From the NCBI GenBank assembly GCA_963666285.1, contig OY762711.1: DNA of 64,000 nucleotides. The stretch is one strand, 5' to 3'. The position numbers and the translations under genes are program-made. This stretch comes from Sedimentisphaerales bacterium (GTDB lineage Bacteria > Planctomycetota > Phycisphaerae > Sedimentisphaerales > SM23-30). The first letter of the stretch is position 1; the number at the start of each line of letters is the position of its first letter. Under the pieces are notes generated by a model. The model saw only the letters and a program-made list of their open reading frames with translations, searched no databases and was not told where the DNA came from. Positions 35,905 to 49,106 of the stretch are shown here, in pieces.

Positions 35905-35938
35905 TTCAAACCTCCAAATTTTTAATAAATATACAAAA

Positions 35939-36170
35939 GTTAACTCTCATAGTTTTTAAGTTGCAATAACGAAGTGCCTCTGGTAAATCGCCTAAAAGGG
36001 CCTTCCTGCAACACTTATGTTTTAAACAAAGCGTGAGACGATAGTGAATTATTCCTGATGTCAACGTACATCGGGACACCTTAATTTTTCAATTTTCACT
36101 ATTCGTTTTTCACTTAATTGGCCCTGTTCAGGCCTTTGTGTATAATGCTGAACAGTCATAAGTGCGATAC
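35939..36170. repeat. Repeat family A copy with an internal segment also present at about 471-545
   Basis: aagttgcaataac.aagtgcctctggtaaatcgcctaaaagggccttcctgcaac matches the 62219-62445 copy; gaattattcctgatgtcaacgtacatc.ggacacc matches 476-510. Confidence 0.7.
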
Positions 36171-36344
36171 CGCACAAGAAACTAGGCCAACATATAATAT
36201 ATGTCCGACAAAATAACCTTTTTATAACGGTTATTATTCTAAATATTTTATTTTTTGATCTGATGAGTGACAAACTAACACTTAATGTCAAGATAGGAAT
36301 TATAGAGAGAGTGGTGAAATATACTATGACCTAAAACCAACAAA

Positions 36345-36839
36345 CTAGTTAATAAGACTTGAAATATTGCCAAAAAACTCAATTTCATTCTTACGGCATT
36401 CCTCAACTGTCTGCTATTTGGGAAATATCCCTGTCGGCTCCAGGTTAAATTTCGAAAATGACCTCAGTACAGCCTTTCCCATTCTTTTAAGATATGATAC
36501 TAGAAGCGGCTGACTGTAATCATGATGGCTTAGCAGACTCAACGCAAATGCAAGCTGAGTCAGTGAAACATTATAAAATGGCGGATCACATACGATAATA
36601 TCGAATCTTTCAGTTATCCATTCCGGCTTGAGCAGGTCATACCTCCGGTAGCCTCGCAGATCGCTAAACCTTTCATCAATATCGAGTACGGTAACATCAA
36701 CAGACCTCTCACCTAGCTTCTTACCCAGCATCGGACAGCAGATACAGCATGGCCTTTCCCAGTTTAACAATAAATCCGCTAATAGTTCCAGTGATTCATC
36801 ATCGAAAAAGTATTGTTCATTTTTATGATTTTCGTCCAT
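36345..36839 (-). pseudogene. DPPF-type methyltransferase (N6-adenineMlase/EEF1AKMT1-like) with in-frame TAG at 36414-36416
   Basis: EQYFFD, LDIDERF, IVCDPPF; the frame continues past TAG as QTVEECRKNEIEFFGNISSLIN to a TAG at 36345-36347. Confidence 0.6.
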
Positions 36840-36842
36840 AAC

Positions 36843-37469
36843 CTACCTGACCTCTTTAAATTTCTCGCCCCTGAAAACTCGAACCGGGTTACCTCGTTCA
36901 AGATTTCCATGCCCGGCCCACCTGCTCTGCTGATTTTCTGCTTTCATATTATAATTATGCTCTTCCAGCTTTTCATTCAAATTTCGCAAAGCCAGCTTAC
37001 GGTTCATATGCTGACAGCGGCTACCACTTGCCATTGTCGAAATTCCAGTCGGCACATGAGTCACCCGTATCGCCGATTCGGTTTTATTAACATGCTGTCC
37101 GCCCGGCCCTGATGACCGCATTGTCTCAAATCGAAGGTCTTTACTGTTCAACTCCAACTCATCCGGCACCTGGCATAACTCAACACCGACAAACCAGTTT
37201 TTCCTTTTATGGTTAGGTCGATATTGACTTTGCCCGGTCCACTGCACTGTACCGGTCCAGCTGTCGATAAGACCAGTAAGCCCCTCCCCTTTAATAGAGA
37301 TCAAGGCTGACTTAAAAATTTCCGACCGGTTTCCCGGCACAAATTCCAATACCTCCGCATTGCCGCCTATCGCCAATACTTCTCTGCAAATAGCTTCAAC
37401 AATTCTTGCAACAACCCAGCAGCATTCGTCCGGCCCACGACCGGATGTAACCTGTAACCAGTATTCCAC
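36843..37469 (-). CDS. prfH: Peptide chain release factor homolog H
   Basis: LQVTSGRGPDEC, GTVQW...RPNHKRKNWF, RSSGPGGQHVNKTES, LERGNPVR. Confidence 0.92.
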   Translation of the reverse strand: MEYWLQVTSGRGPDECCWVVARIVEAICREVLAIGGNAEVLEFVPGNRSEIFKSALISIKGEGLTGLIDSWTGTVQWTGQSQYRPNHKRKNWFVGVELCQVPDELELNSKDLRFETMRSSGPGGQHVNKTESAIRVTHVPTGISTMASGSRCQHMNRKLALRNLNEKLEEHNYNMKAENQQSRWAGHGNLERGNPVRVFRGEKFKEVR

Positions 37470-37490
37470 TAGTATCTCCTCGTAACTGTA

Positions 37491-39266
37491 TCAATGCCGT
37501 CTGGCATAATATAAATCCTCATTTTCAGCCCACCGTCTAATTATAGCTTTTTCTTCATCTTTGGCAAACCTGTTATACAAACCTCTCACCTGGCATATTT
37601 CCTTTTTTGAAATATATACTTCAATCGTCAGGCATTTTTTCCGCTCGGATTCGGTTTCCAGCTCCATCGACCATATCGAACTCTTTCCCTTATTACATGA
37701 GTGAGCATATGTTGCTACACAATGACGAAGCTTTCGACCCTCAGTTATCAGTTCCCGGCTGGTGACCAGCTCTGAGATTCGCCAGACTCTCATATTATTA
37801 TGTTCGCATTCTCCTTCTATATAATTAAACGGAGCTATACCACTAAACTCCCATTTCAAATCGCTTACACCTGACTCTTTACCAAGTCTGTTATGCCAGT
37901 TCTTCACCGCTCTTAACAGCCTGCCAACTGTACGGCCCTTCATCGAAAATTCAGGCTGCGCCGGGCCGCGATTTTCCGCCACACCCCTATCAACAAACAC
38001 TATCTGGTCTTCATATTTCTGATTCCAGATATAGTCTATTACCGGCCCGACATAAACAACATCCAGCATAGGGTTACGAGCGAGAAATTCGATAACCTTA
38101 ACCCAGAACTCATCATCTCTGAAATCATCTTTCAAGCGAGTTTCTACTATAGCATCTGCCAGCCTCTCATCCCCTCCGGCCGCCATAACCTGGCCCCATC
38201 GAAAAGCCTCTTCAATAGAATAACTATCAGGAGCGGTAAGAAAATAATGTGCCGTTTTCTTTGTCATTTTAATCGGCAATGATTTATTATTACGTATATT
38301 CTTACCAATCCCAATCTGCTTATACACTTCCTGGTATAATTCATTGCCTGTAAGCCATGCCTTATCCATAAATTCCGGCACATCATACCTGGCCCACAAA
38401 TGCCTCAACAAAGAGCAGAACTGCTTATTTCGATTATGTGTAGTAACCTTCCATTCATTAAGCGGCCTGATCCAGCTGTCCCTGCCTTTAACAATTTCAA
38501 AAATAGCCTTTACGTACAAAGGATCATGACAAACCTTACTCCTTGCATCAATATACCTGAATATATCATATATATTTTTTCGATTGGCTGAGTTTGCAAA
38601 ACCTTCATAAATTACTTTTGCAATTTCAGATTTCAAACTCTGCTCGTTTAATTTATTTTCCCGCGCAGCTGCTATCAGCTTTTTAAAGTTTCGTACCCGC
38701 TTATCCTTTGCCAGTAATTTACCACTGTCTTTCTCTCCGCTGTCAATCCCTGATATTATTTTCTTAAATGCTCCATCACGCTCTTTTGCCAGGTTCAGGT
38801 TGCCGCCCATATCAACACCTTCGGCACTACAGCGTAAACAATACATATGCTTTACTATAAGGTGCTCATTTGCAACGGTTATCGTTTTAAGACGACGTTT
38901 CCCTATTCGCCCATCAAGCATACCGACAGCTTTTATGATCAGGTTTCTCGACCGCAATATTTCATCTATACCAAGGGTTAGATATTCTTCCAACGACCTG
39001 GCCAGCCTCAAATTCGTAAAGCTTGGCGTTTCATATCGAAAGTTATCCTGTCCCGAATAATACCACTCTACTTCTTCAGAATAACATTCATAGTCGCTGA
39101 CATATACCGCAGCTGAACTTCTCTTCGGGCCTCTTTTATCAATTGCAATCCACGCCTTATTCCAGTAACTGGAATAGTAATGATTATCAATTCCAAAACT
39201 TATTCGACCTCTTACCGATCCGGCCAAACAGCCGTATATTCTTTTTTGTATCTGATTCCATTTCAT
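37491..39266 (-). CDS. PcfJ-domain protein with an additional N-terminal domain
   Basis: C-terminal ELITEGRKLRHCVATY...LTIEV....QVRGLYNR PcfJ motif. Confidence 0.75.
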   Translation of the reverse strand: MKWNQIQKRIYGCLAGSVRGRISFGIDNHYYSSYWNKAWIAIDKRGPKRSSAAVYVSDYECYSEEVEWYYSGQDNFRYETPSFTNLRLARSLEEYLTLGIDEILRSRNLIIKAVGMLDGRIGKRRLKTITVANEHLIVKHMYCLRCSAEGVDMGGNLNLAKERDGAFKKIISGIDSGEKDSGKLLAKDKRVRNFKKLIAAARENKLNEQSLKSEIAKVIYEGFANSANRKNIYDIFRYIDARSKVCHDPLYVKAIFEIVKGRDSWIRPLNEWKVTTHNRNKQFCSLLRHLWARYDVPEFMDKAWLTGNELYQEVYKQIGIGKNIRNNKSLPIKMTKKTAHYFLTAPDSYSIEEAFRWGQVMAAGGDERLADAIVETRLKDDFRDDEFWVKVIEFLARNPMLDVVYVGPVIDYIWNQKYEDQIVFVDRGVAENRGPAQPEFSMKGRTVGRLLRAVKNWHNRLGKESGVSDLKWEFSGIAPFNYIEGECEHNNMRVWRISELVTSRELITEGRKLRHCVATYAHSCNKGKSSIWSMELETESERKKCLTIEVYISKKEICQVRGLYNRFAKDEEKAIIRRWAENEDLYYARRH

Positions 39267-39437
39267 TTTTTGATCTTCTATATATATAAAAAGGATAAAT
39301 TTCTTTGTTATTTACAAGCCATAATTTTATTAATACTTTTTGCATATTAAACTCCTGTTACACCCTGGGCTTAAACCCAATATTTGTTTTGAAATCTATT
39401 ATCTTATACTGACTCAAATGCCAGTATAAGATATACA

Positions 39438-40847
39438 CTAATCTTCCGGCCGTTCACCTGCCGGTGCCATCTTAACGATCTTTGGGTCAAACCTGGCAAT
39501 CTTCTCTACCAGGTCACTCTGGGCCGACATTACCTCATCGATATTCTTATACGCCATCGGCACCTCGTCAAGCCCGGCAGTTAATACTCGCACACCATTG
39601 GCTTCCAGGAACTTCTTCGCATCATGCCAGGTATAAGTTTCCTTCGCCTTCTTACGGCTCATCCGGCGACCTGCACCATGTGACGCCGAGTTCAGCGACT
39701 TCGGATTACCTTTACCACGCACTACATAACCCGGCGTTGCCATCGAACCGGGAATAATACCCAACGCACCGACACCGGCCGGGGTCGCTCCTTTACGATG
39801 TACAATCACTTCCTTGTCATCATGCTCTTCCTTCCAGGCAAAGTTATGATGGTTTTCGACATCCAGCAAAACCTTAACACCAAGATTCCTGGCAATATGC
39901 TTATGCACCAGTTCATGGTTGGCCGCGGCATAACGACCCATCAGCTCCATCGCACGCCAGTATTCCTGACCTTCATCGCTGTCAATATCCAGCCATGCCA
40001 GGTGCATCAGTTCCTTTGGCAGTTCAAGATGTCGTTTCATCGCAAGTTTACTATAATACGTAGCTATCTCGTTACCAGTACCGCGGCTGCCGCTATGGCT
40101 CAACAATGCCAGGTAGGTGCCGGCTTCCAGTCCGAGATCATACTTTTCAAGCGTCAAAGTACCAAACTCGACAAAATGATTTCCGCTGCCGCTGGTACCC
40201 AGCTGGCTCCAGGCCTTATCCTTCAAACTCTTGACAGTTGAGCTGAATGTCCAATCTTCATCCATGACATCATGCTCACGTCTGCGCTTAAAAGTCGCTC
40301 CTACACCAAAACGAGTCTCCATTTCTAACGCATTCTTCAGCAAACCAAACTGGCCGTTAATCGCTGATACCGGCATATCCAAAACCGTCATCTTCATCCG
40401 GCAGGCAATATCAACTCCAACTGCATAAGGAATCACTGCCCCTTCCGTTGCCAGTACCCCGCCGATAGGCAGGCCATATCCGGTATGAGCGTCCGGCATC
40501 AACGCACCTCGCACCGAAATCGGAAGCTTACACGCATTCTCCATCTGCTCAATCGCAGAATCTTCCATGTCATCACCCCAGCGTTTATAATACGCCGGAC
40601 TCTGACGAGGTACATACATGGCTTGTGCTGCTTTGGTCCGATTCAATACCTGTGCCGTTGCACCAAAAATCTCATCGTTAAAATATTTCTCTGCATTTGC
40701 CACTAAATCCGCAACCTTCTCACGCAGGACACTCTTGTTCTTACCGCGGCCTTCGTCGGAACGAACCCACCGCATGATCGCCTTTTTGATAAGGTCCATC
40801 GCCTCACCCTTCGGCACTCCAAGATTTAATAATTCTCTGGTCTTCAT
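39438..40847 (-). CDS. rtcB: RtcB RNA 2',3'-cyclic-phosphate/5'-OH ligase
   Basis: MPDAH.GYGLPIG, GVDIAC, GSGNHF, HSGSRG, NHHN, HRKGAT, SHGAGR, DEVPMAYK; start set at MKTRELL. Confidence 0.95.
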   Translation of the reverse strand: MKTRELLNLGVPKGEAMDLIKKAIMRWVRSDEGRGKNKSVLREKVADLVANAEKYFNDEIFGATAQVLNRTKAAQAMYVPRQSPAYYKRWGDDMEDSAIEQMENACKLPISVRGALMPDAHTGYGLPIGGVLATEGAVIPYAVGVDIACRMKMTVLDMPVSAINGQFGLLKNALEMETRFGVGATFKRRREHDVMDEDWTFSSTVKSLKDKAWSQLGTSGSGNHFVEFGTLTLEKYDLGLEAGTYLALLSHSGSRGTGNEIATYYSKLAMKRHLELPKELMHLAWLDIDSDEGQEYWRAMELMGRYAAANHELVHKHIARNLGVKVLLDVENHHNFAWKEEHDDKEVIVHRKGATPAGVGALGIIPGSMATPGYVVRGKGNPKSLNSASHGAGRRMSRKKAKETYTWHDAKKFLEANGVRVLTAGLDEVPMAYKNIDEVMSAQSDLVEKIARFDPKIVKMAPAGERPED

Positions 40848-41055
40848 AATATCAATTTCCCTTATCTCAAACATCTGTAAAATTATTGTCTTTAATAAAA
40901 ATAGTATCACCTCGCGAAGCGATCATTATCCACCCTCGCCGTAGGCGTATCCTTTACTGTTGCCTCATCACTTCTGTCCACTGCCTTTTTTTTAGAGTTG
41001 ACACAACTCTCTGGAACTCATCCAAAAGTCTTTTGGATACATTCGACATTCAGTT

Positions 41056-41493
41056 TCATGTTCCACTCACATCACGCGGCAGATTCCTGTCGGCATAAGC
41101 CCATTCAACCTCACGCTCCGTCCAGGTATGACAGCTCGGCTTTACCAGCTCAGGATTATCCAGGCTGCCGGCCTTTATAAATATGTGGTCCGGACATTTC
41201 TCGGCACGGGTAAACAACGGCGAACCGCAATCCGGGCAAAAATCACGCGTTATATCTCGACCGCTGTCTGCTTTTGAGGTATAACTCTTCACCTGCCCGC
41301 TCAATATCTTCAGCTTGCTCTTTTCCGAAACAATACCAACTGTAAACGGACCGCCCGTCGCTTTCTTGCAGTCATCGCAATGACAATAGCTCGATTCACC
41401 AACTTCACCATCATACTCATAGCGAATCCCGCCGCATAAACAACCACCTGTAAACTTACTGTCCATACCTGCTCCTTCTAATAATCCAGCCAC
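41056..41493 (-). CDS. GFA/CENP-V family Zn protein
   Basis: GGCLCG, CHCDDCKK, FCPDCGS. Confidence 0.9.
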   Translation of the reverse strand: MAGLLEGAGMDSKFTGGCLCGGIRYEYDGEVGESSYCHCDDCKKATGGPFTVGIVSEKSKLKILSGQVKSYTSKADSGRDITRDFCPDCGSPLFTRAEKCPDHIFIKAGSLDNPELVKPSCHTWTEREVEWAYADRNLPRDVSGT

Positions 41494-41520
41494 GGTAAAA
41501 CCGTAACATTAGCTTGCCAT

Positions 41521-42561
41521 TTATTTCTTATTTCTAATTACTCTTACTTCATACAGATCTTTATCAAGCTTCTCAACTTCAAAATCGACATCAAGAAACT
41601 TCTTGATAGTTTCAATATTCGTCAGCGAATGCATCGTCAGCGGCACCGTTCGGAACCGACCGCCGCCCGCCATGGCAAACGGTATCAACAGCTGATCTGC
41701 CAGGTGCCTGCCAACCGGCACTCCGGCCGCCAGATATTCTCTCGCCTCTTTCACCAGCGGCACCGGAACCTTATCCGCAGGAACACTTCGCATGCCAAAA
41801 CCGGTAAACATCTCGGTTACATTCTCACTTCTAACCTCGGCGGTCACCAGGTTACCAGGCCCGATAGAGTCCTTAACCTCTACCAGCTCCAGCCAGTTTT
41901 TATCCCAGTTAAGCCGCTGCTTGATCACTTTCAGCTCACGATGCCCGATCTGCTCCGGCAGATTCGCGACATATGCCTTTGCCCGGCGAGCAGTAATATC
42001 TCCACGCTCAATAAGTTCGATCCTATCTAGTTTCTCGACCGGCTGAATCTCAACCGTAAACCGGCCGCCGCCCGCCGGATAGAAACCGGGCCGCTTCAAA
42101 TTCATTTTCACACTTGGACCCATCCTGTTAATAACCGGTGCAAAACATTTGTCAAGATAATCAAACGGCGGTGCATAAGGGTTATGAGTACCACCCTCCA
42201 GGGTAATCTTGGTATATTTATCTGCAACCAGCAGCGGCGGCAGAATCGTCTGCAATACCAGAGTAGTACTACCGGCACTGCCGATTGTAAAATGATACTT
42301 ACCGGCATTCACTGTCTGCGGCTCAAATGTTATCTTGCGTGAACCAATAGTATTTCCGGTAACCTTCGCACACCCTACCTCAGCAGCGGCATTAACAGCT
42401 GTTAGATGCTGACGCATCAGGCCAGGCTTCTTGCGCCCGGCACGAATATTATCTATCTCAAACGGCCTGCCTGTCACCAAAGACAACGCCAGGCTGCTGC
42501 GGACAATCTGGCCGCCGCCTTCACCGTATGAACCGTCTATTTTTATCATTTCATTCTTCAT
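41521..42561 (-). CDS. rtcA: RNA 3'-terminal phosphate cyclase
   Basis: IDGSYGEGGGQ, RAGRKKPGLMRQH, GGTHN..APP, GFYPAGGG, HLADQL. Confidence 0.95.
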   Translation of the reverse strand: MKNEMIKIDGSYGEGGGQIVRSSLALSLVTGRPFEIDNIRAGRKKPGLMRQHLTAVNAAAEVGCAKVTGNTIGSRKITFEPQTVNAGKYHFTIGSAGSTTLVLQTILPPLLVADKYTKITLEGGTHNPYAPPFDYLDKCFAPVINRMGPSVKMNLKRPGFYPAGGGRFTVEIQPVEKLDRIELIERGDITARRAKAYVANLPEQIGHRELKVIKQRLNWDKNWLELVEVKDSIGPGNLVTAEVRSENVTEMFTGFGMRSVPADKVPVPLVKEAREYLAAGVPVGRHLADQLLIPFAMAGGGRFRTVPLTMHSLTNIETIKKFLDVDFEVEKLDKDLYEVRVIRNKK

Positions 42562-42648
42562 ATCATTCTATCATCAAATATTTATTATCTTAACCAGATT
42601 ACACAATATTATATTATCATAAGTAGTCATAATTTAACATTATTTATT

Positions 42649-42823
42649 ATTTCAATCTAAACCACTTTGAGCAAAGCGAACACCTCGGCTCTTCGTCCTT
42701 CACATATTTTCTCGGGCAGGACGTGGAAGACCAGGTACCTTGCAGCTGTTTTCTGCAAAAATCCCCGGCTTCCTGCCCGGGAACAATACCGGCTGTTTCT
42801 CCGGCATGTTCCATCGATCAAAT
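42649..42823 (-). ncRNA. Putative structured ncRNA, element E1
   Basis: Closing stem, GATCGATGG, two long hairpins (GGAACA..TGTTCC; CGGGCAGGA..TCCTGCCCG), and AGGTGTTCGCTTTGCTC shared with E2. Confidence 0.5.
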
Positions 42824-42831
42824 TCATCCAA

Positions 42832-42905
42832 TAGCTCCGATTGGATTCGAACCAATACGATACGAATTTTAAATTCGCTGCCTCTGCCGGTTGGGCTACG
42901 GAGCC
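42832..42905 (-). tRNA. tRNA-Leu (TAA) with short variable loop
   Basis: GGCTCCG/CGGAGCT, GCGAA-TTTAAAA-TTCGT, 5-nt variable region, GGTTCGAATCC. Confidence 0.8.
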
Positions 42906-42909
42906 GTAA

Positions 42910-42985
42910 TGGGGTGACCGACGAGACTCGAACTCGTAGTCCCCAGAATCACAATCTGGTGCTTTTTCCTTTAAGCTACGGCCAC
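42910..42985 (-). tRNA. tRNA-His (GTG), CCA encoded
   Basis: GTGGCCG/CGGTCAC-C-CCA, CCAGA-TTGTGAT-TCTGG, GAGTTCGAGTCTC. Confidence 0.88.
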
Positions 42986-42987
42986 AA

Positions 42988-43062
42988 TCTGGGCGGCTGG
43001 ATTTGAACCAGCGACTTCTTGCTTCCAAAACAAGCAGGCTAACCTGACTGCCCCACACCCAG
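42988..43062 (-). tRNA. tRNA-Pro (TGG)
   Basis: CTGGGTG/CGCCCAG-A, CTTGT-TTTGGAA-GCAAG, GGTTCAAATCC. Confidence 0.88.
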
Positions 43063-43140
43063 CGATATTATGTAATCCTTCTCAAGGGCAGACCAGGCAA
43101 CCTTAACCCTGGCCCGCCCCATCCTGATTTGTAACGGTGA

Positions 43141-43213
43141 TTGGGCGAGGTGGACTCGAACCACCGTCTGAACCTTATGAAAGTACTGCTAAAACCACCT
43201 CAGCTACCGCCCA
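43141..43213 (-). tRNA. tRNA with CAT anticodon (Met or Ile2), weak anticodon stem
   Basis: TGGGCGG/TCGCCCA, GTACT-TTCATAA-GGTTC (one T-T mismatch), GGTTCGAGTCC. Confidence 0.75.
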
Positions 43214-43254
43214 GTAAATTAACAAAACAATAATACATTGCAACTTCATTTCAA

Positions 43255-43328
43255 TAGCTCTGGTTGGATTCGAACCTACACTGAACGGCTTCTAAGACCG
43301 TCGCCTCTACCTGTTGGGCTACAGAGCC
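43255..43328 (-). tRNA. tRNA-Leu (TAG) with short variable loop
   Basis: GGCTCTG/CAGAGCT, ACGGT-CTTAGAA-GCCGT, 5-nt variable region, GGTTCGAATCC. Confidence 0.8.
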
Positions 43329-43387
43329 ATATGTCTGGAGCAGATTGATAAACTTCATCAGTCCGCTCCAACATGCATCATTCCCTT

Positions 43388-44491
43388 CTATATCAAATTT
43401 ACTACCTTATCTGACAAACCCTTCTCACCGAGAACTACCTTCAGCTTGGAGTTAGTTGATATCTTCTCCAAAACTTCTAGCTCTCTCAGCCTCATCAATA
43501 TCGGGTTGCTCTCCAGCAGCTTGGCGGTGTTAGCCTGGGAACGCATCGCCGCGGTCTCTTCCCTGCGAACGATCAGGTTCGCTTCGGCTGCCTTCTTTGC
43601 CTCCGTTACCTTGTTCAAAAGAAACTTCATATCGCCCGGCAGTATCACATCTCGGATACCAAGCGAAGTCACCTTCAAACCAAACACCTCGGCACGCTCT
43701 GCCAGCTGGCCCTTCAGCTCTATTGCCAGCGAATCCTTATCTGCCAGCAGATCTTCAAGCTCACGACCGCCTACCAATGCCCGCAAAGCAAGCTGAGTCT
43801 CTCGATACAAAGACTGCTTCACATCTTCTGTAGCTCGCACCGCCTTCTCCGGGTTCTTGACAACATAAGACACTATCGCGTTCACCCTCAAAGTAACTTT
43901 GTCGGCTGACATTATCTCCTGGCCGGAAATATCAAGCGACATCTCGGACATATTCACCTGGAAGATCTTCACTCGCTCTATCCCCTTCCAGAAAACATAG
44001 CGACCGGCATCCAGCACCTCCGCATAACGACTGTTCTGGAACAAAACGCCAACGTGATCTTCGGCTACCGTTATTTCTTCCAGCAGCTCTCCGGCTCCCT
44101 TAGACTTCAATATGACATTCAGGTCAGGATGGTCAAACCTTACTTCACGGGCATCGATCACCTCTACCCGGACATTGCGATGTGTCGTCCAGATACCGTA
44201 CATACCGGCAGACATAACTTTGGCAAACCTGCCGTCTACCCATACCAGCGCCCGCTGATAATCCTGGATATCAAGTACTGTCGCATCCCTATCCAGCTCA
44301 CCTGACTTATATATCAAGTCCAGCTTATCGGTATGCAGCCACGGATCACGCATGTCTGACACCTGAACACGGTCTTTTACTAGCGGATTCAACATCCAGT
44401 GCGACCCGGCATCCAAAACTCCAACGAACTCATCGTTCCTGAAGTGCAATCCCTTCTCGTATGACTTTATCCTTACCTTCCTGACTGTCAT
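43388..44491 (-). CDS. Slipin (SPFH/band-7) family protein
   Basis: GQEIMSADKVTLR, QLALRALVG, IRDVILPG, RREETAAMRSQANTAKL..NPILMRLRELE; RBS ggag. Confidence 0.9.
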   Translation of the reverse strand: MTVRKVRIKSYEKGLHFRNDEFVGVLDAGSHWMLNPLVKDRVQVSDMRDPWLHTDKLDLIYKSGELDRDATVLDIQDYQRALVWVDGRFAKVMSAGMYGIWTTHRNVRVEVIDAREVRFDHPDLNVILKSKGAGELLEEITVAEDHVGVLFQNSRYAEVLDAGRYVFWKGIERVKIFQVNMSEMSLDISGQEIMSADKVTLRVNAIVSYVVKNPEKAVRATEDVKQSLYRETQLALRALVGGRELEDLLADKDSLAIELKGQLAERAEVFGLKVTSLGIRDVILPGDMKFLLNKVTEAKKAAEANLIVRREETAAMRSQANTAKLLESNPILMRLRELEVLEKISTNSKLKVVLGEKGLSDKVVNLI

Positions 44492-44732
44492 TTTATCATC
44501 TCCAATCTTAAAACCTGTTTAATCAGGCATATCAAAATTTCCTTTCATCTCAAAAGACAAATTTACAATCCTATAACACTTTATTTCTCAAATGACTGAT
44601 TGGCCTCTTTATATTGTAATAACATGCTTTAAGACAACCTGTCATATTAAAAACTTAATTAGCTTGCCGTTCTGCGGCAATCCTCGCCTAATACCAAATA
44701 CCTAACAGCTAATACCATATTTACTTCTTAAA

Positions 44733-44805
44733 TACTCCAGAGCGGTTACGATCCGCTGTCTAGGGAATGAAAGTCCCTTATTCTTACCAACTGAACTACT
44801 GGAGC
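44733..44805 (-). tRNA. tRNA-Glu (TTC) with non-canonical T loop
   Basis: GCTCCAG/CTGGAGT, AGGGA-CTTTCAT-TCCCT, T arm AGCGG-ATCGTAA-CCGCT. Confidence 0.78.
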
Positions 44806-44831
44806 ACAATATTTCTGTCTTCAATATTTAA

Positions 44832-44994
44832 TTTACTCAAAGTGACCGATTTTACATTTTTTATTGCTGTAACACAATTCAATGCAAATTGTTACATTAA
44901 TGATTTAATTAGCCTGCCGCTTTGCGGCAAACCTTCCCTAATACCAAATAACTAATACCTAATACCTCTCAAACTGGCCATCGGTCAGTTTGAG
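44832..44994. repeat. Composite intergenic repeat (uninterrupted counterpart of 30246-32010)
   Basis: ttactcaaagtgaccgattt...ttgctgtaacacaat...gccgctttgcggca, then heptamers, then the CAAACTG palindrome. Confidence 0.7.
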
Positions 44995-45008
44995 TAATTT
45001 AAACTGAT

Positions 45009-45148
45009 TTCCGCGTCAGACTTAAAACATATCGCGAGCAAAGCAAATACCTTAACTATTAGTTAATAACTTCTTAGATTGCTGTAATAATCTAAGAATA
45101 AAGCTGTCAGGAAACGATTCAACTTTCCAGCCCGTCGATCACGCGGAA
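45009..45148 (-). ncRNA. Putative structured ncRNA, element E2
   Basis: Closing stem TTCCGCGT/ACGCGGAA, GATCGACGG, hairpins, AGGTATTTGCTTTGCTC shared with E1. Confidence 0.5.
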
Positions 45149-45208
45149 TATGCTTAAGTAAAACCTGACCATGTCAGGAAAACAGATTCCTGATTGCAGC
45201 ACCACTCA

Positions 45209-45280
45209 CTACCCCGTCAGGACTCGAACCTGAACAAACACAGTCAAAGTGTGTTATGCTGCCAATTACATCACGAAGTA
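45209..45280 (-). tRNA. tRNA-Gln (TTG)
   Basis: TACTTCG/CGGGGTA-G, ACACA-CTTTGAC-TGTGT, GGTTCGAGTCC. Confidence 0.85.
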
Positions 45281-45320
45281 ATCCGGCTAGTGCCACAATT
45301 TTATATATCCACATGTTTTC

Positions 45321-45703
45321 AACAAGCATGATCCAGATTATGCGGTATCCACATATTACATGGCGGTTTCCAATGGTGCTGATAAGTTAAGACATCACAA
45401 AACACTTATCAGCTGCCAGATCACTAAACCGTTTCCATCGAGCCTGCTTAGCCCGGATATTCCATAAATATTTTACATAAACCTATAAATTAGTTTGCCA
45501 ACATAGTTTTGCAGTAAATTAACCTGCTGCAAAAATTACACAGTGTATTCAGTGCGTATATTTTGTTTGCTGACAAGGAAGTTAGTACAAGTATCCGCAG
45601 GCATGTTGATTACATGTCGAGGACAACTTGTGCTAACTAACGCAGCTCAGCAGACAAAAGATGCGTGCTGATACAAAACATTTATGGAATATCCGGGCTT
45701 ATC
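45321..45703 (-). ncRNA. Putative structured ncRNA, element E3, interrupted by a MITE
   Basis: With the MITE removed: GATAAGCA/TGCTTGTT closing stem, GCTCGATGG, hairpins GCTGATAAGT..ACTTATCAGC and TATGTGG-ATA-CCGCATA. Confidence 0.4.
45451..45698. mobile_element. MITE (248 bp)
   Basis: Perfect 19-bp TIR GCCCGGATATTCCATAAAT; TTA duplicated at 45448-50 and 45699-701; no ORF. Confidence 0.85.
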
Positions 45704-45718
45704 GCCATTTCAGGGCGT

Positions 45719-45790
45719 AGGGTGGTGTGGGGATCGAACCCACTCTTAGAGTTTAAAAAACTCTCGCTCTACCAACTGAGCTAACCAGTT
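45719..45790 (-). tRNA. tRNA-Lys (TTT)-like, probable pseudo-tRNA
   Basis: Canonical D, anticodon and T arms; acceptor AACTGGT/ACCACCC pairs only 4 bp. Confidence 0.65.
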
Positions 45791-45793
45791 TGT

Positions 45794-45866
45794 TGATCGA
45801 TACGGGACTCGAACCCGTAATTACAGTTTCTTAAACTGTCGCATTTACCTTTTATGCTAATCGAAC
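45794..45866 (-). tRNA. tRNA-like gene with AAG anticodon (nominally Leu)
   Basis: GTTCGAT/ATCGATC, GCAT..ATGC D stem, ACAGT-TTAAGAA-ACTGT, GGTTCGAGTCC, followed by ACA. Confidence 0.65.
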
Positions 45867-45870
45867 CTTG

Positions 45871-45950
45871 TCCACCTTCGTTAAAACCCGTTCGCGGAAC
45901 ATACCGGCAAAACAGCAAAACCGTCACCGGCACGCCGCCGGCACGGCGGA
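45871..45950 (-). ncRNA. Putative structured leader RNA, element E4
   Basis: TCCGCC/GGTGGA closing stem, GTGCCGGCGG, long hairpin, GTTTTAA before the 3' strand. Confidence 0.4.
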
Positions 45951-45987
45951 AATCTCTTATCTATTATCAAAGAACAATCTCTTTATT

Positions 45988-46003
45988 AACAACCGCCGTG
46001 CCA
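45988..46003 (-). promoter_or_regulatory. Sigma54 (-24/-12) promoter of the rtc/tRNA unit
   Basis: TGGCAC-GGCGG-TTGTT (consensus TGGCAC-N5-TTGCW, one mismatch at -12), divergent from rtcR with an AT-rich upstream region. Confidence 0.7.
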
Positions 46004-46147
46004 AAACCGAAAATATTTTACTATATTTTTTTAATTCATTTAACAATAAGAACTTATAAAAATATATGATATCATTGACAAAATCAGGTACAAATTATAT
46101 ACTTATAAAATATTATAAACTTATAGATATAGATATATTATTTAACA

Positions 46148-47740
46148 ATGAAAAAAGTCATCATAGGCCTCTACGGCCCCACTCTCGACCGGGGTATCGA
46201 TGCCGATCGCTGGAACTTCTGGCGACCGAGCGTATCTCTATGCCAGCACGAAGACCTGCTCATCGATAGATACGAACTGATATTAGAAAAGAAATTTGAA
46301 AAGGTCGCCCAGACCGTTATCAACGACATACACACCATCTCCCCGGAAACTACCGTCGTCCCGCACCATATCCAGTGGAAAGACCCTTGGGACTTCCAGG
46401 AAGTTTACAACATTCTCCACGACTTCACCAGGAACTATAACTTCGACCCTGACAATGAAGAATATTACATCCATATCACCACCGGCACACACGTCGTTCA
46501 GATTTGCATGTTCCTGCTGACCGAATCTCTATACTTCCCCGGCAAACTCATCCAGTCCAGCCCCCCGAAACGAGAACGTTACGGCGACCTGGGCAGCTAC
46601 CAGGTAATAGACCTCGACCTCTCAAAATACGATGGCATCGCCATGCGATTCAAACAGCAGGTCAAAGATGATATCTCACTACTAAAATCAGGCATCCATA
46701 CCCGCAACAAAAAATTCAATAAACTCATCGAACGCATCGAACATGTAGCCTCACGCACGATCGACCCGATACTCATTACCGGCCCAACCGGTGCCGGTAA
46801 ATCTCAGCTTGCCAAACAGATATTTGAACTCAAAAAGACACACCGTAAACTCAAAGGCAATTTCGTCGAGGTCAATTGCGCCACCATTCGCGGCGACAGC
46901 GCCATGTCAGTCCTGTTCGGCCATACCAAAGGCGCCTTTACCGGCGCAGTACAAAGCAGAGACGGACTGCTCAAAACTGCCGACCAGGGCATATTATTCC
47001 TTGACGAAATCGGAGAACTCGGACTGGAAGAACAGGCAATGTTGCTCCGCGCTATCGAAGAAAAAAGCTTTCTACCTGTCGGTGCCGACAAGGAAGTCTC
47101 CAGCGACTTCCAGCTTATCTGCGGCACCAATAGAAACCTCCACGCCCACGTCAATAACGGCACATTCCGCGAAGACCTGCTCGCACGTATCAACCTGTGG
47201 ACTTTCAACCTGCCCGGACTCAAAGACAGACCGGAAGACATCGAGCCAAATATCCAGTACGAACTCGACCGCTACGAACGCACTACCGGCACACACATCA
47301 GGTTCAATACCGAAGCCCTCAAACACTTCCTGACTTTCAGTTCTTCAGCACAGGCGCAATGGAAATCAAACTTCCGCGACCTCATCGGTGCCATCACCCG
47401 CATGGCAACCCTCGCGCCCGGCGGTCGAATCGACCAGGACAACGTCGATGAAGAAATTCAGCGTCTGAAACATTCATGGCAGCCAAACGCTGGCGATAAT
47501 ACACCTTCAGCCCTTTCAGAAATACTCGACAGCGATCAAATCGAAATGATTGATGAATTCGACAAACCGCAGCTCAACCATGTCCTGAAAATCTGCTCTG
47601 AATCTAAAACACTTTCAGAAGCCGGACGAAAACTGTTCAATATATCACGCACCCAGAAACAGCGAACCAACGATGCCGACCGCTTGAGAAAATACCTCGC
47701 CAGGTTCAACATCACCTGGCATGACATCCATAACAAATAA
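46148..47740 (+). CDS. rtcR: RtcR sigma54-dependent RNA-repair activator
   Basis: WRPSVSLCQH, DPWDF, HITTGTHV (RtcR N-domain); GPTGAGKS, GAFTGA, FLDEIGE; NDADRLRKYL. Confidence 0.95.
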   Translation: MKKVIIGLYGPTLDRGIDADRWNFWRPSVSLCQHEDLLIDRYELILEKKFEKVAQTVINDIHTISPETTVVPHHIQWKDPWDFQEVYNILHDFTRNYNFDPDNEEYYIHITTGTHVVQICMFLLTESLYFPGKLIQSSPPKRERYGDLGSYQVIDLDLSKYDGIAMRFKQQVKDDISLLKSGIHTRNKKFNKLIERIEHVASRTIDPILITGPTGAGKSQLAKQIFELKKTHRKLKGNFVEVNCATIRGDSAMSVLFGHTKGAFTGAVQSRDGLLKTADQGILFLDEIGELGLEEQAMLLRAIEEKSFLPVGADKEVSSDFQLICGTNRNLHAHVNNGTFREDLLARINLWTFNLPGLKDRPEDIEPNIQYELDRYERTTGTHIRFNTEALKHFLTFSSSAQAQWKSNFRDLIGAITRMATLAPGGRIDQDNVDEEIQRLKHSWQPNAGDNTPSALSEILDSDQIEMIDEFDKPQLNHVLKICSESKTLSEAGRKLFNISRTQKQRTNDADRLRKYLARFNITWHDIHNK

Positions 47741-47775: not shown

Positions 47776-47864
47776 ATCTATTCTCACTTCCCCGTCAGCT
47801 TTATAATATATGTTAGCCGTCAGGCGAAATTATCTACTTCTCACTTTATCCACAAAACTATGTT

Positions 47865-49106
47865 TTAGTGAATTACTCCTCCCGCTACAGTATCAGTATC
47901 ACGCATCAGAACAAAACGACCTGTCTCGGCAACCTGTTCAAATTTATCTGTCGCGACATAACCATCCAGCTTCAGGGTCAGCCTGGCAACTTCAGTTTCA
48001 CGAAGCTCGTTAGATGATTCTTCGATCACTTCCAGCGATGAACTGTTCAGGCGGTTATCTATCCTCTTGACCTGGCACTGCATCTGGTTAGTTGCACACT
48101 TAAAGTCAAGCTTATCGTTCAACCTTACCGGCATACCAGACATCCAGAACACTACCGCCTCAATTGTACTGCTCACCATCGGTGACGGCTCAACATCACA
48201 TGCAATCTCACCTCGCTTCAATGCCTTAAACGCACTTTCACCTTTCAGCGTCAAACCAATAGACTCACCGGCAACTGCAACATCAAAATCTTCATTAAAG
48301 TTCTTCTTAATCTTATCAACCGTTGCCGACTTGCCGCACGGATGGAAAATAATATCCTGGCCCGACTTGATCGCACCGGAAACCAGACGGCCGGCGATAA
48401 TCTTCTGACCGTCTACCTCATAAATATCCTGGATCGGGAACCGCAGCATCCCATCTTCTGTTGTCTTGGCACATTCCAGCTTATCCAACGCTTCCAACAT
48501 AGTCATCCCGCTGAACCAGCTCATATTTTCGCCCTTCTTCGCTACGTTATCACCCAGCTGAGCAGAAATCGGGATTATCATCTCAGGCTTAACCGTCATA
48601 TTGAACTCGCCCAGCCTTGCGGTTATCTGATCGCGAAGCTCATTAAAACGCTCTTCCTTATAACCTGCCAGGTCCATCTTATTAACAATCACTATCAGCT
48701 GCTTAATGCCCAGCAGACCAAGTATATAAGCATGACGATGTGTCTGTTCACGCAAACCTTCCTCGGCATCGATCAGCAGCAATGCCGCTTCCGCCTGGGT
48801 ACTGCCTGTTATCATATTCTTCAAAAACTGTTTATGGCCGGGAGCATCAATAATCGTATAGTCACGCTTTTCAGTCTTAAAGAATGTCTGAGCCGTATCA
48901 ATTGTTATACGGTTTGTACGCTCTTCTTCCAGATGGTCCATCACAAACGCAAACTCAGGCTGGCCATTTGACTCTTCGCTCATCCTGCGAACTTCTTCCA
49001 TCTTATCCGGCGGCAAAGACTCCGTATCATACAACAGCCTTCCGATCATCGTGCTCTTTCCATGGTCAACATGACCAACAGCTACAAAATGAAGATTCTC
49101 ACGCAT
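47865..49106 (-). CDS. cysN: Sulfate adenylyltransferase subunit 1 (GTPase)
   Basis: GHVDHGKST, ITID, DAPGH, NKMD, EF-Tu-like domains II/III; linked to cysD. Confidence 0.88.
   Translation of the reverse strand: MRENLHFVAVGHVDHGKSTMIGRLLYDTESLPPDKMEEVRRMSEESNGQPEFAFVMDHLEEERTNRITIDTAQTFFKTEKRDYTIIDAPGHKQFLKNMITGSTQAEAALLLIDAEEGLREQTHRHAYILGLLGIKQLIVIVNKMDLAGYKEERFNELRDQITARLGEFNMTVKPEMIIPISAQLGDNVAKKGENMSWFSGMTMLEALDKLECAKTTEDGMLRFPIQDIYEVDGQKIIAGRLVSGAIKSGQDIIFHPCGKSATVDKIKKNFNEDFDVAVAGESIGLTLKGESAFKALKRGEIACDVEPSPMVSSTIEAVVFWMSGMPVRLNDKLDFKCATNQMQCQVKRIDNRLNSSSLEVIEESSNELRETEVARLTLKLDGYVATDKFEQVAETGRFVLMRDTDTVAGGVIH

Follow-up and report, generated by a model that had tools for sequence, protein, structure and literature searches.

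The locus described here joins genes of transfer RNA (tRNA) shape, a slipin gene and genes for RNA repair and ribosome rescue, and it lies on a 64,000-nucleotide (nt) stretch of DNA from a Sedimentisphaerales bacterium of the phylum Planctomycetota (contig OY762711.1 of assembly GCA_963666285.1), the whole of which is called the window below. Among the systems with which it has to be compared, the first is said to have been presented in the abstract of Burroughs and Aravind from 2016, as SPFH/Band-7 modules with a novel tRNA-like molecule. [quoted passage not shown] The other systems are taken from parts of the published reports. In Salmonella, fragments of tRNA switch RtcR on (PMC7790460). 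Translational stress in Anabaena induces the trn array jointly with rtcB (PMC8421152), and the TrcR regulon of this cyanobacterium is given as the trn array, rtcB and the slipin gene alr0740 (PMC10272220). PrfH and RtcB2 are known from Escherichia coli as a ribosome rescue-repair pair (PMC9304027), and the rtc locus of Pseudomonas aeruginosa includes an SPFH gene (PMC13086221). In our literature search, tRNA arrays linked to slipin, SPFH or stomatin appeared nowhere except in the Anabaena regulon table, and the array papers searched are silent on slipin.

We read the locus as an RtcR/sigma-54-controlled Band-7 (slipin)/b7a-tRNA operon of the RNA-damage response, enlarged by seven extra tRNA genes and a PrfH module, and give this reading a probability of about 60%. 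It is carried by what is observed, namely the content, order and strand of the genes, the conservation of the promoter box, the conservation and covariation of a tRNA mimic and of a leader RNA, and the recurrence of tRNA genes beside the slipin family. The parts of the proposed operon, from rtcR downwards, are as follows.

46148..47740, plus strand: rtcR, a CARF plus AAA+ sigma-54 activator (Pfam RtcR 263 bits and Sigma54_activat; NF038308 790 bits)
45989..46003, minus strand: sigma-54 -24/-12 box TGGCAC-N5-TTGT, the sole match in the window (0.22 expected by chance)
45794..45866, minus strand: first tRNA-shaped gene, read as tRNA mimic A (ARAGORN Leu-AAG, 73 nt)
45715..45793, minus strand: read as the b7a-type tRNA mimic (ARAGORN Lys-UUU at 45717-45791; 4-bp acceptor stem; 71.5 bits with covariance model R1)
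45088..45445, minus strand: conserved, structured leader RNA of slipin; its variable region holds tRNA-Gln
45208-45281, minus strand: tRNA Gln-UUG (ARAGORN; 53.9 bits with Rfam; acceptor stem complete; 69% identity with the housekeeping tRNA-Gln)
44732-44806, minus strand: tRNA Glu-UUC (ARAGORN; 58% identical to the housekeeping copy)
43388..44491, minus strand: slipin, an SPFH/Band-7 protein (Pfam Band_7 107 bits; two extra N-terminal beta repeats)
43254-43329, minus strand: tRNA Leu-UAG (ARAGORN, 76 nt)
43141-43213, minus strand: tRNA Met-CAU (ARAGORN)
42988-43062, minus strand: tRNA Pro-UGG (ARAGORN)
42910-42985, minus strand: tRNA His-GUG (ARAGORN; CCA encoded)
42832-42905, minus strand: tRNA Leu-UAA (ARAGORN, 74 nt)
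41521..42561, minus strand: rtcA, RNA 3'-phosphate cyclase (Pfam RTC 272 bits; NF003246 441 bits, above 352)
41056..41493, minus strand: GFA-family zinc protein (Pfam GFA 118 bits; 27 nt after rtcA)
39438..40910, minus strand: rtcB (Pfam RtcB 299 bits, residues 122-479)
37491..39266, minus strand: SF0329 plus PcfJ-like protein of 591 aa (Pfam; NCBIfam NF049912)
36843..37469, minus strand: prfH, a release-factor homologue (TIGR03072 255 bits, above 166.65; GGQ at 123)
36414..36839, minus strand: PF10237 methyltransferase (Pfam 67.6 bits; DPPF at residue 85; 3 nt after prfH)

The original prediction, an interpretation made from the letters of the window, had listed the protein genes of the minus strand at these coordinates, and each of them gained support from Pfam and NCBIfam. 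Its view that the composition goes well beyond known systems does not hold, since the combination of a Band-7 protein, a tRNA-like RNA and RtcB was predicted in 2016 and Anabaena co-regulates an array, rtcB and a slipin. Like the Band-7/b7a-tRNA system, the locus joins an apparently soluble Band-7 protein, an upstream tRNA-like RNA and RtcB with RtcA and RtcR; the Band-7 gene stands with rtcB, and the family of the upstream tRNA-like gene is defined here by position and alignment. Unlike the system as predicted, which we know through the citing passage, the locus has nine tRNA-shaped genes rather than one, and it goes beyond the prediction with a second mimic, a leader RNA of ~350 nt, PrfH, a methyltransferase and the SF0329/PcfJ protein. 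With the Salmonella rsr-yrlBA-rtcBA locus it shares RtcR/sigma-54 and an arrangement in which the rtc genes are preceded by those for an RNA-binding scaffold protein and for non-coding RNAs that contain a tRNA-like domain, but slipin takes the place of Ro60 and real-looking tRNA genes are present. Neither part of a Ro60/Y RNA module was found, as no protein of the genome matches TROVE/Ro60 and the best score with the Rfam YrlA model is 34.5 bits, below 69. As in Anabaena PCC 7120 with its long trn array and TrcR regulon, where they respond jointly to translation stress, the locus combines redundant tRNA genes with rtcB and a slipin (PMC8421152, PMC10272220); according to the parts of these reports that describe it, however, the Anabaena genes are unlinked, are controlled by the repressor TrcR and include 26 tRNAs, whereas the planctomycete locus is a single one, with nine tRNA-shaped genes, behind a predicted activator-dependent sigma-54 promoter. 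As in rtcR/rtcBA of E. coli, rtcR is divergent from a sigma-54 promoter followed by cyclase and ligase genes; unlike there, rtcA precedes rtcB, and ~3.4 kb of RNA genes and slipin lie between the promoter and rtcA. With PrfH-RtcB2 of E. coli the locus shares a PrfH of equivalog rank with GGQ in an operon with RtcB, but here this RtcB scores below the PrfH-linked model, is the sole one, and is separated from prfH by a gene, and a methyltransferase gene is coupled to prfH.

Elements of an rtc operon under RtcR and sigma-54 are found, namely RtcR with its CARF, AAA+ sigma-54 activation and DNA-binding parts, a divergent promoter with RpoN in the genome (Sigma54_DBD 199.8 bits), and RtcA and RtcB downstream. 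RtcR reaches 790 bits with the NCBIfam model NF038308 over residues 1-529, against a cut-off of 650, and is the only gene of the locus that PADLOC recognises. The divergent arrangement of rtcR and the TGGCAC-N5-TTGT box, already noticed in the original prediction, was confirmed, the single match of the 64-kb window lying 144 nt from the start of rtcR. For comparison, 70 planctomycete rtcR loci (64 strong ones, the G009 locus, four close loci from a genome-contig search with RtcR, and the window) were annotated with the window proteins and ARAGORN. Of the 68 loci scored, 55 have their best -24/-12-like match on the operon strand at a distance of 78-170 nt from the rtcR start, and the G009 locus has the identical box in the same position, including the TTGT variant. 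A contig of 542 nt from a wetland RNA library, belonging to a close relative, spans 45938 to 45133 with both mimics, the leader RNA and tRNA-Gln; this metatranscriptome contig, the sole source of RNA data, is a hint that these parts are expressed.

RtcR was found in two of 41 close relatives and in 83 of the 401 sampled genomes of the phylum, and slipin accompanies it in ten of the 70 rtcR loci. The original prediction had named absence of the tRNA genes from homologous rtc loci as a point that would tell against it; in seven of the ten slipin-bearing loci, tRNA or tRNA-like genes were found on the operon strand between rtcR and the rtc genes. Their number is nine in the window, four each in L001 and L008, and one each in L002, L003, L016 and L038, with a second tRNA-like gene added by Rfam in L002 and L003. 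Among the 60 rtcR loci without slipin, some of which are short, an operon-strand tRNA occurs only in L012, beyond rtcA. In the G009 locus, tRNAs are followed by slipin, then by tRNA-Leu(UAG) and the gene of an RNase T-like exonuclease, and last by rtcA and rtcB; its Leu(UAG) gene and that of the window, which stand at corresponding places, are 81% identical. While the GFA gene follows rtcA in the window, other rtcR-slipin operons have different genes inserted next to it, with an RNase T-like exonuclease before it in L001 (9682-10227, minus strand) and a treble-clef zinc-finger protein after it in L008 (6770-7447, plus strand).

The link between slipin and tRNA genes extends to metagenomes. These were scanned with an alignment of six slipins, and the best 80 of 483 relatives, 55-72% identical, were kept. 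In most of these loci with enough upstream sequence, slipin relatives stand directly behind same-strand tRNA genes, up to whole arrays, and this association is new. A same-strand tRNA lies no more than 900 nt from slipin in 51 of the 62 loci whose upstream sequence reaches at least 600 nt, and runs of 5-41 same-strand tRNAs occur in 27 of the 80 slipin loci (at least 20 tRNAs in 14 of them); many of these runs end at contig ends, and three pairs of loci look like one sequence sampled twice. The arrays end in a recurrent order, namely His, a gap of ~700 nt, Trp, Thr, several Arg, Cys, one odd tRNA and slipin. A locus from a metagenome contig of 46% GC (L148:1412-10121) carries RtcR, a mimic, slipin, RtcA and RtcB and then 13 same-strand tRNAs, and from its gene content appears to be another RtcR operon that includes a tRNA array, its genes being ordered differently. 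The window, for its part, appears from its gene order to place slipin-linked tRNAs together with PrfH under RtcR/sigma-54, which is likewise new. Two slipin relatives were found in IMG/VR, one of them on a 94-kb contig of putative viral origin where 36 same-strand tRNAs, a mimic and slipin (L152:2908-9101) follow the order of the metagenome arrays. Genes after slipin differ from locus to locus, and RtcA/RtcB were found there only in L070, L139 and L148, among 77 open reading frames scanned.

Several smaller features of these arrays may be recorded. The gap between His and Trp, in which no tRNA is called, measures ~660-730 nt (L078:6151-6811, L080:4359-5029, L146:6290-6943 and L152:6222-6882). 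Short 'Leu' tRNAs of 74-77 nt without a long variable arm are common in the arrays of L070-L149 (for example L078:4709-4861), where they accompany one or two Leu genes with a long arm. A gene for EF-Tu with domain 3 stands directly after slipin in L084:9468-10667, and L120:3265-3972 is a gene of the 2'-5' RNA ligase (LigT) family after slipin, with RtcB upstream.

The last tRNA-like genes before slipin form one family (alignment A2, 26 sequences), to which the 'Lys-UUU' gene of the window can be aligned. In this family the D and T arms hardly vary, only about four pairs of the acceptor stem are conserved, and RNAalifold gives 18 pairs, 12 of them with compensatory changes, while the anticodon triplet differs almost everywhere. 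With the covariance model R1 the top match reaches at least 64 bits in 55 of the 59 metagenome loci searched, and these matches precede the start of slipin by a median of 442 nt. A 7-nt loop is present in 53 of the 59 distinct sequences; these 53 loops show 24 different triplets and keep U33 in 33 cases. The difference per site is 0.648 at loop positions 33-36 against 0.072 in the body (401 pairs with bodies at most 10% different). The 'Lys-UUU' gene is the best R1 match in the genome (71.5 bits), has only four acceptor pairs, and is matched by the Rfam tRNA model locally, at model positions 4-67. The 'Leu-AAG' gene, whose anticodon occurs nowhere else in the genome, has its acceptor stem, unusual D-loop and position in common with the aberrant 82-nt 'Leu-GAG' that is the first element of L002, L003 and L070, though identity is only 67-71%. 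We read the two as a conserved pair of mimics on these grounds, the identity of 'Leu-AAG' being modest.

Between the mimic and slipin lies a second conserved RNA of ~270-370 nt (alignments A3 and A4). The copy in the window shares four conserved blocks and a closing stem with 19 other loci, and the fold predicted for the RNA across loci has 28 pairs, 21 of them with compensatory changes, with a long closing stem of both ends followed by a U-rich run (RNAalifold). In a search with Rfam of the window region, nine planctomycete loci and eight metagenome loci, only tRNA exceeded its threshold. The original prediction had marked four structured elements here, of which that at 45088-45445 is this conserved folded RNA; the other three turned out to be mobile or dispersed repeats and are described at the end. 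Two other ideas about this spacer were rejected. It does not encode a conserved small protein, as the reading frames are not conserved and an apparent peptide motif falls in different frames. Complementarity between mimic loop positions 33-36 and a fixed place in the leader, as if the loop were a specifier like that of T-box RNAs, gave a windowed count of 14, above all 300 label shuffles (highest 13), yet the offsets of the matching sites vary widely within an A/T-rich tail that cannot be aligned, and the related loci are not independent.

The slipin gene is on the strand of rtcA, 826 nt upstream of it, and its product is without a hydrophobic segment. In an AlphaFold2 model (predicted local distance difference test 80) the SPFH domain is accompanied by a long helix and by the two extra beta repeats at the N terminus. 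A Foldseek search with this model placed stomatin at the top (1e-15), ahead of HflK/C, prohibitin and QmcA, and also gave the major vault protein (5e-10) with the longest alignments, of 401-464 columns. Many of the entry titles name large oligomeric assemblies, such as the stomatin complex, the HflK/C assembly, the flotillin complex and the vault cage; from these relatives the slipin of the window is expected, on the strength of the model, to assemble into a soluble ring or cage that has no membrane anchor.

ARAGORN, the check that the original prediction had proposed for its nine tRNA-like genes, calls ten tRNA genes in the window, nine of them on the minus strand between 42832 and 45866, and these nine reach 51.2-63.8 bits with the Rfam tRNA model (gathering score 29). 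The nine tRNA-shaped genes are thus real, while two of them are read as conserved mimics and not as replacement tRNAs. The genome has 55 tRNA genes, of which 46 lie outside the locus; these make up a complete set, in which the Leu tRNAs measure 84-88 nt, and the nine are therefore redundant. They are 56-74% identical to the housekeeping counterparts with the same anticodon, eight of the nine have a full acceptor stem of 7 bp, and U33 and A37 are present in the loops drawn. Five of them stand in a row at 42832..43329 (minus strand) between slipin and rtcA. A tRNA array unit has been defined, in the part of the report consulted, by at least 20 tRNA genes at no fewer than 2 per kb (PMC4758250); the locus stays below this size, with nine genes over 3 kb and a densest run of five in 0.5 kb. 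Descent from the sampled arrays was considered and rejected, the window tRNAs being at most 74% identical to any array tRNA, which is the background level.

The genome encodes a single RtcB by Pfam. This protein has an N-terminal extension of ~95-120 residues before the Pfam domain, as has the copy in G009, and falls below every NCBIfam cut-off for RtcB. In L002, L003 and L070 prfH directly follows rtcB, and PrfH is therefore taken to belong to this operon type; a PrfH above the cut-off occurs in five of the 401 genomes. Among the 70 rtcR loci, genes for the SF0329/PcfJ protein, the GFA protein and the methyltransferase are found in the window only.

Put together, the operon that we propose would work as follows. 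Cleaved tRNAs with 2',3'-cyclic phosphate ends would activate RtcR, as is established for the Salmonella protein, and activated RtcR would open the sigma-54 promoter at 45989-46003. The transcript would run through the two mimics, the ~350-nt leader, slipin, the five tRNAs, rtcA, the GFA gene, rtcB, the SF0329/PcfJ gene, prfH and the methyltransferase gene, and processing of RNase P/Z type would free its tRNA-shaped parts. The mimic and the leader RNA may form with slipin an RNA-protein cofactor of repair, parallel to Y RNA and Ro60 of rsr-yrlBA-rtcBA. RtcA and RtcB would reseal broken RNAs; PrfH would free ribosomes stalled by damage to ribosomal RNA (rRNA), and the sole RtcB would reseal that rRNA. 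Seven presumably decoding-competent tRNAs (Gln, Glu, two Leu, Met, Pro and His) could supplement or replace damaged ones. The original idea of one unit for repair and for replacement tRNAs is plausible in general and has precedent, although it would cover only seven of the nine genes. Co-transcription, induction, charging of the tRNAs and binding of RNA by slipin are steps that we infer.

A number of observations weigh against this reading. The RNA-library contig may stem from carried-over DNA, and it belongs to another organism. In the box, the -12 element is GT where GC is usual. Mobile repeats are inserted between the RNA genes, a weak terminator-like hairpin (45178-45164) follows tRNA-Gln, the leader RNA ends in a stem and a U-rich run, and sigma-70-like matches occur inside the unit, though the 34 found compare with 26 expected, so that read-through to slipin and beyond is not assured. 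Housekeeping tRNAs of the genome reach 70.6 bits with R1, a score which alone does not discriminate, and the assignment of 'Lys-UUU' as a mimic therefore rests on its position, short acceptor stem and alignment. The three 'Leu' genes (73-76 nt) have no long variable arm and the 'His' gene encodes C73-CCA and no G-1, both of which are odd for translation. As to the rescue module, RtcB scores 141.7 bits with the PrfH-linked model TIGR03073, below its cut-off of 271.8, and thus does not classify as a PrfH-linked RtcB, and the SF0329/PcfJ gene separates rtcB from prfH. This gene and that of the methyltransferase are unseen in other rtcR-slipin loci, and PcfJ-like relatives in the phylum (23 of 401 genomes) show similarity only over the C-terminal part and do not neighbour PrfH.

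The hypervariable loop of the mimic family also fits a different account, in which the tRNA-shaped RNAs, above all the b7a-type mimic, are baits or decoys for anticodon nucleases that either soak up the nuclease or yield cyclic-phosphate halves activating RtcR, and slipin and RtcB then handle the cleaved pieces. Among the rival explanations it is this one that the loop favours, with its 24 triplets in 53 loops and 0.648 against 0.072 differences per site, and anticodons with which bacteria normally do not decode (AAG, AAA, AGG and ATT) also occur. Comparable roles have been proposed in the portions of two reports that we used, as a sponge for the Anabaena array tRNAs (PMC8421152) and as a competitive inhibitor for YrlA (PMC7790460). 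A variable loop could also be an unconstrained one, however, eight of the nine genes in the window keep regular decoding loops and full acceptor stems that a decoy does not need, and no nuclease gene was identified in the locus by Pfam, NCBIfam or PADLOC. We regard the account as possible, if unlikely. A bolder version, which we consider speculative and quite unlikely, makes the b7a-type mimic a fast-evolving tripwire whose loop copies the tRNA under attack by the local anticodon nucleases and whose cleavage products switch RtcR on, with a soluble, vault-like slipin cage holding the mimic, the leader and RtcB so that severed tRNAs are resealed, and with the linked tRNAs (few here, up to 41 elsewhere) sustaining translation. 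If this were true, the long 'L-array' tRNA operons and the Band-7/b7a-tRNA systems would be one widespread mobile counter-defence against tRNA-cutting toxins.

The arrays of the metagenomes raise another question, namely whether the tRNA genes are the cargo of a mobile cassette of tRNA array and slipin that landed in an rtc operon, where they would be self-expressed without a tie to RtcR, RtcB or PrfH. In most metagenome loci the genes after slipin are indeed unrelated, with RtcA/RtcB in only three of those scanned, and the 94-kb IMG/VR contig carries 36 tRNAs with slipin. Neither the rtc locus nor RtcR was found in three genomes of the same genus, synteny breaks at 47861, the window tRNAs resemble the sampled array tRNAs by at most 74%, and repeats have invaded the locus. 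On the other hand, the genes share one strand and are tightly packed behind one sigma-54 box, tRNA-like genes recur in seven of the ten slipin-bearing rtcR loci, which belong to different genera, and again in L148, and Anabaena, in the portion of the report on its regulon, co-regulates array, rtcB and slipin even though they are unlinked. We hold this origin to be improbable. Least probable of all is that the tRNA shapes are mainly processing signals, where cuts by RNase P and RNase Z would set the leader RNA free and divide the transcript into separately stable mRNAs. Such genes do stand at the borders of blocks (before and inside the leader, before slipin, and between slipin and rtcA), and the idea is compatible with the other readings; one tRNA per junction would suffice, yet five stand in a row at 42832-43329 and arrays of up to 41 precede slipin elsewhere.

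Under the preferred reading of an RtcR-controlled slipin/b7a-tRNA operon, these loci physically link three questions from separate literatures, namely the substrates of bacterial RtcB, the role of SPFH proteins of slipin type, and the purpose of redundant tRNA arrays. Because the genome has one RtcB, one RtcR and one slipin, and the organism appears to have been sequenced from a culture-like sample, it would make a compact test system, suited to asking if RNA damage induces the spare tRNAs, if slipin and the mimic bind each other, and why the anticodon loop of the mimic changes so fast.

As to the borders of the locus, a CysN/EF-1-alpha-like GTPase gene (47865-49106, minus strand) lies tail to tail with rtcR. 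The side of this gene is syntenic in two genomes of the same genus (71-78% identity) and synteny stops at precisely 47861, so that the region on the rtc side is specific to the lineage. On the left flank no synteny was found in the two same-genus genomes examined, and only the right border (47861) can be placed. The repeats within and beside the operon are the following.

45446..45696, no strand assigned: MITE-like insertion (miniature inverted-repeat transposable element), not part of the system, bounded by terminal inverted repeats of ~25 nt and flanked by a direct repeat of 5 bp
44827..45002, no strand assigned: dispersed repeat, not operon-specific (BLAST gives 121 hits of up to 99% identity in the genome)
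44492-44731: diverged repeat copy (35 BLAST hits in the genome)
35905..36413, no strand assigned: dispersed repeat at the far end of the operon (282 BLAST hits in the genome)

The first of these is present in a single copy in the genome (BLAST) and separates the mimic from the leader RNA; the RNA-library contig of the relative matches 45938-45697 and 45445-45133 and skips exactly this 251-nt element. The dispersed repeats in the gaps of the operon (44827-45002, 44492-44731 and 35905-36413) contain heptamer runs and a GC-rich hairpin.

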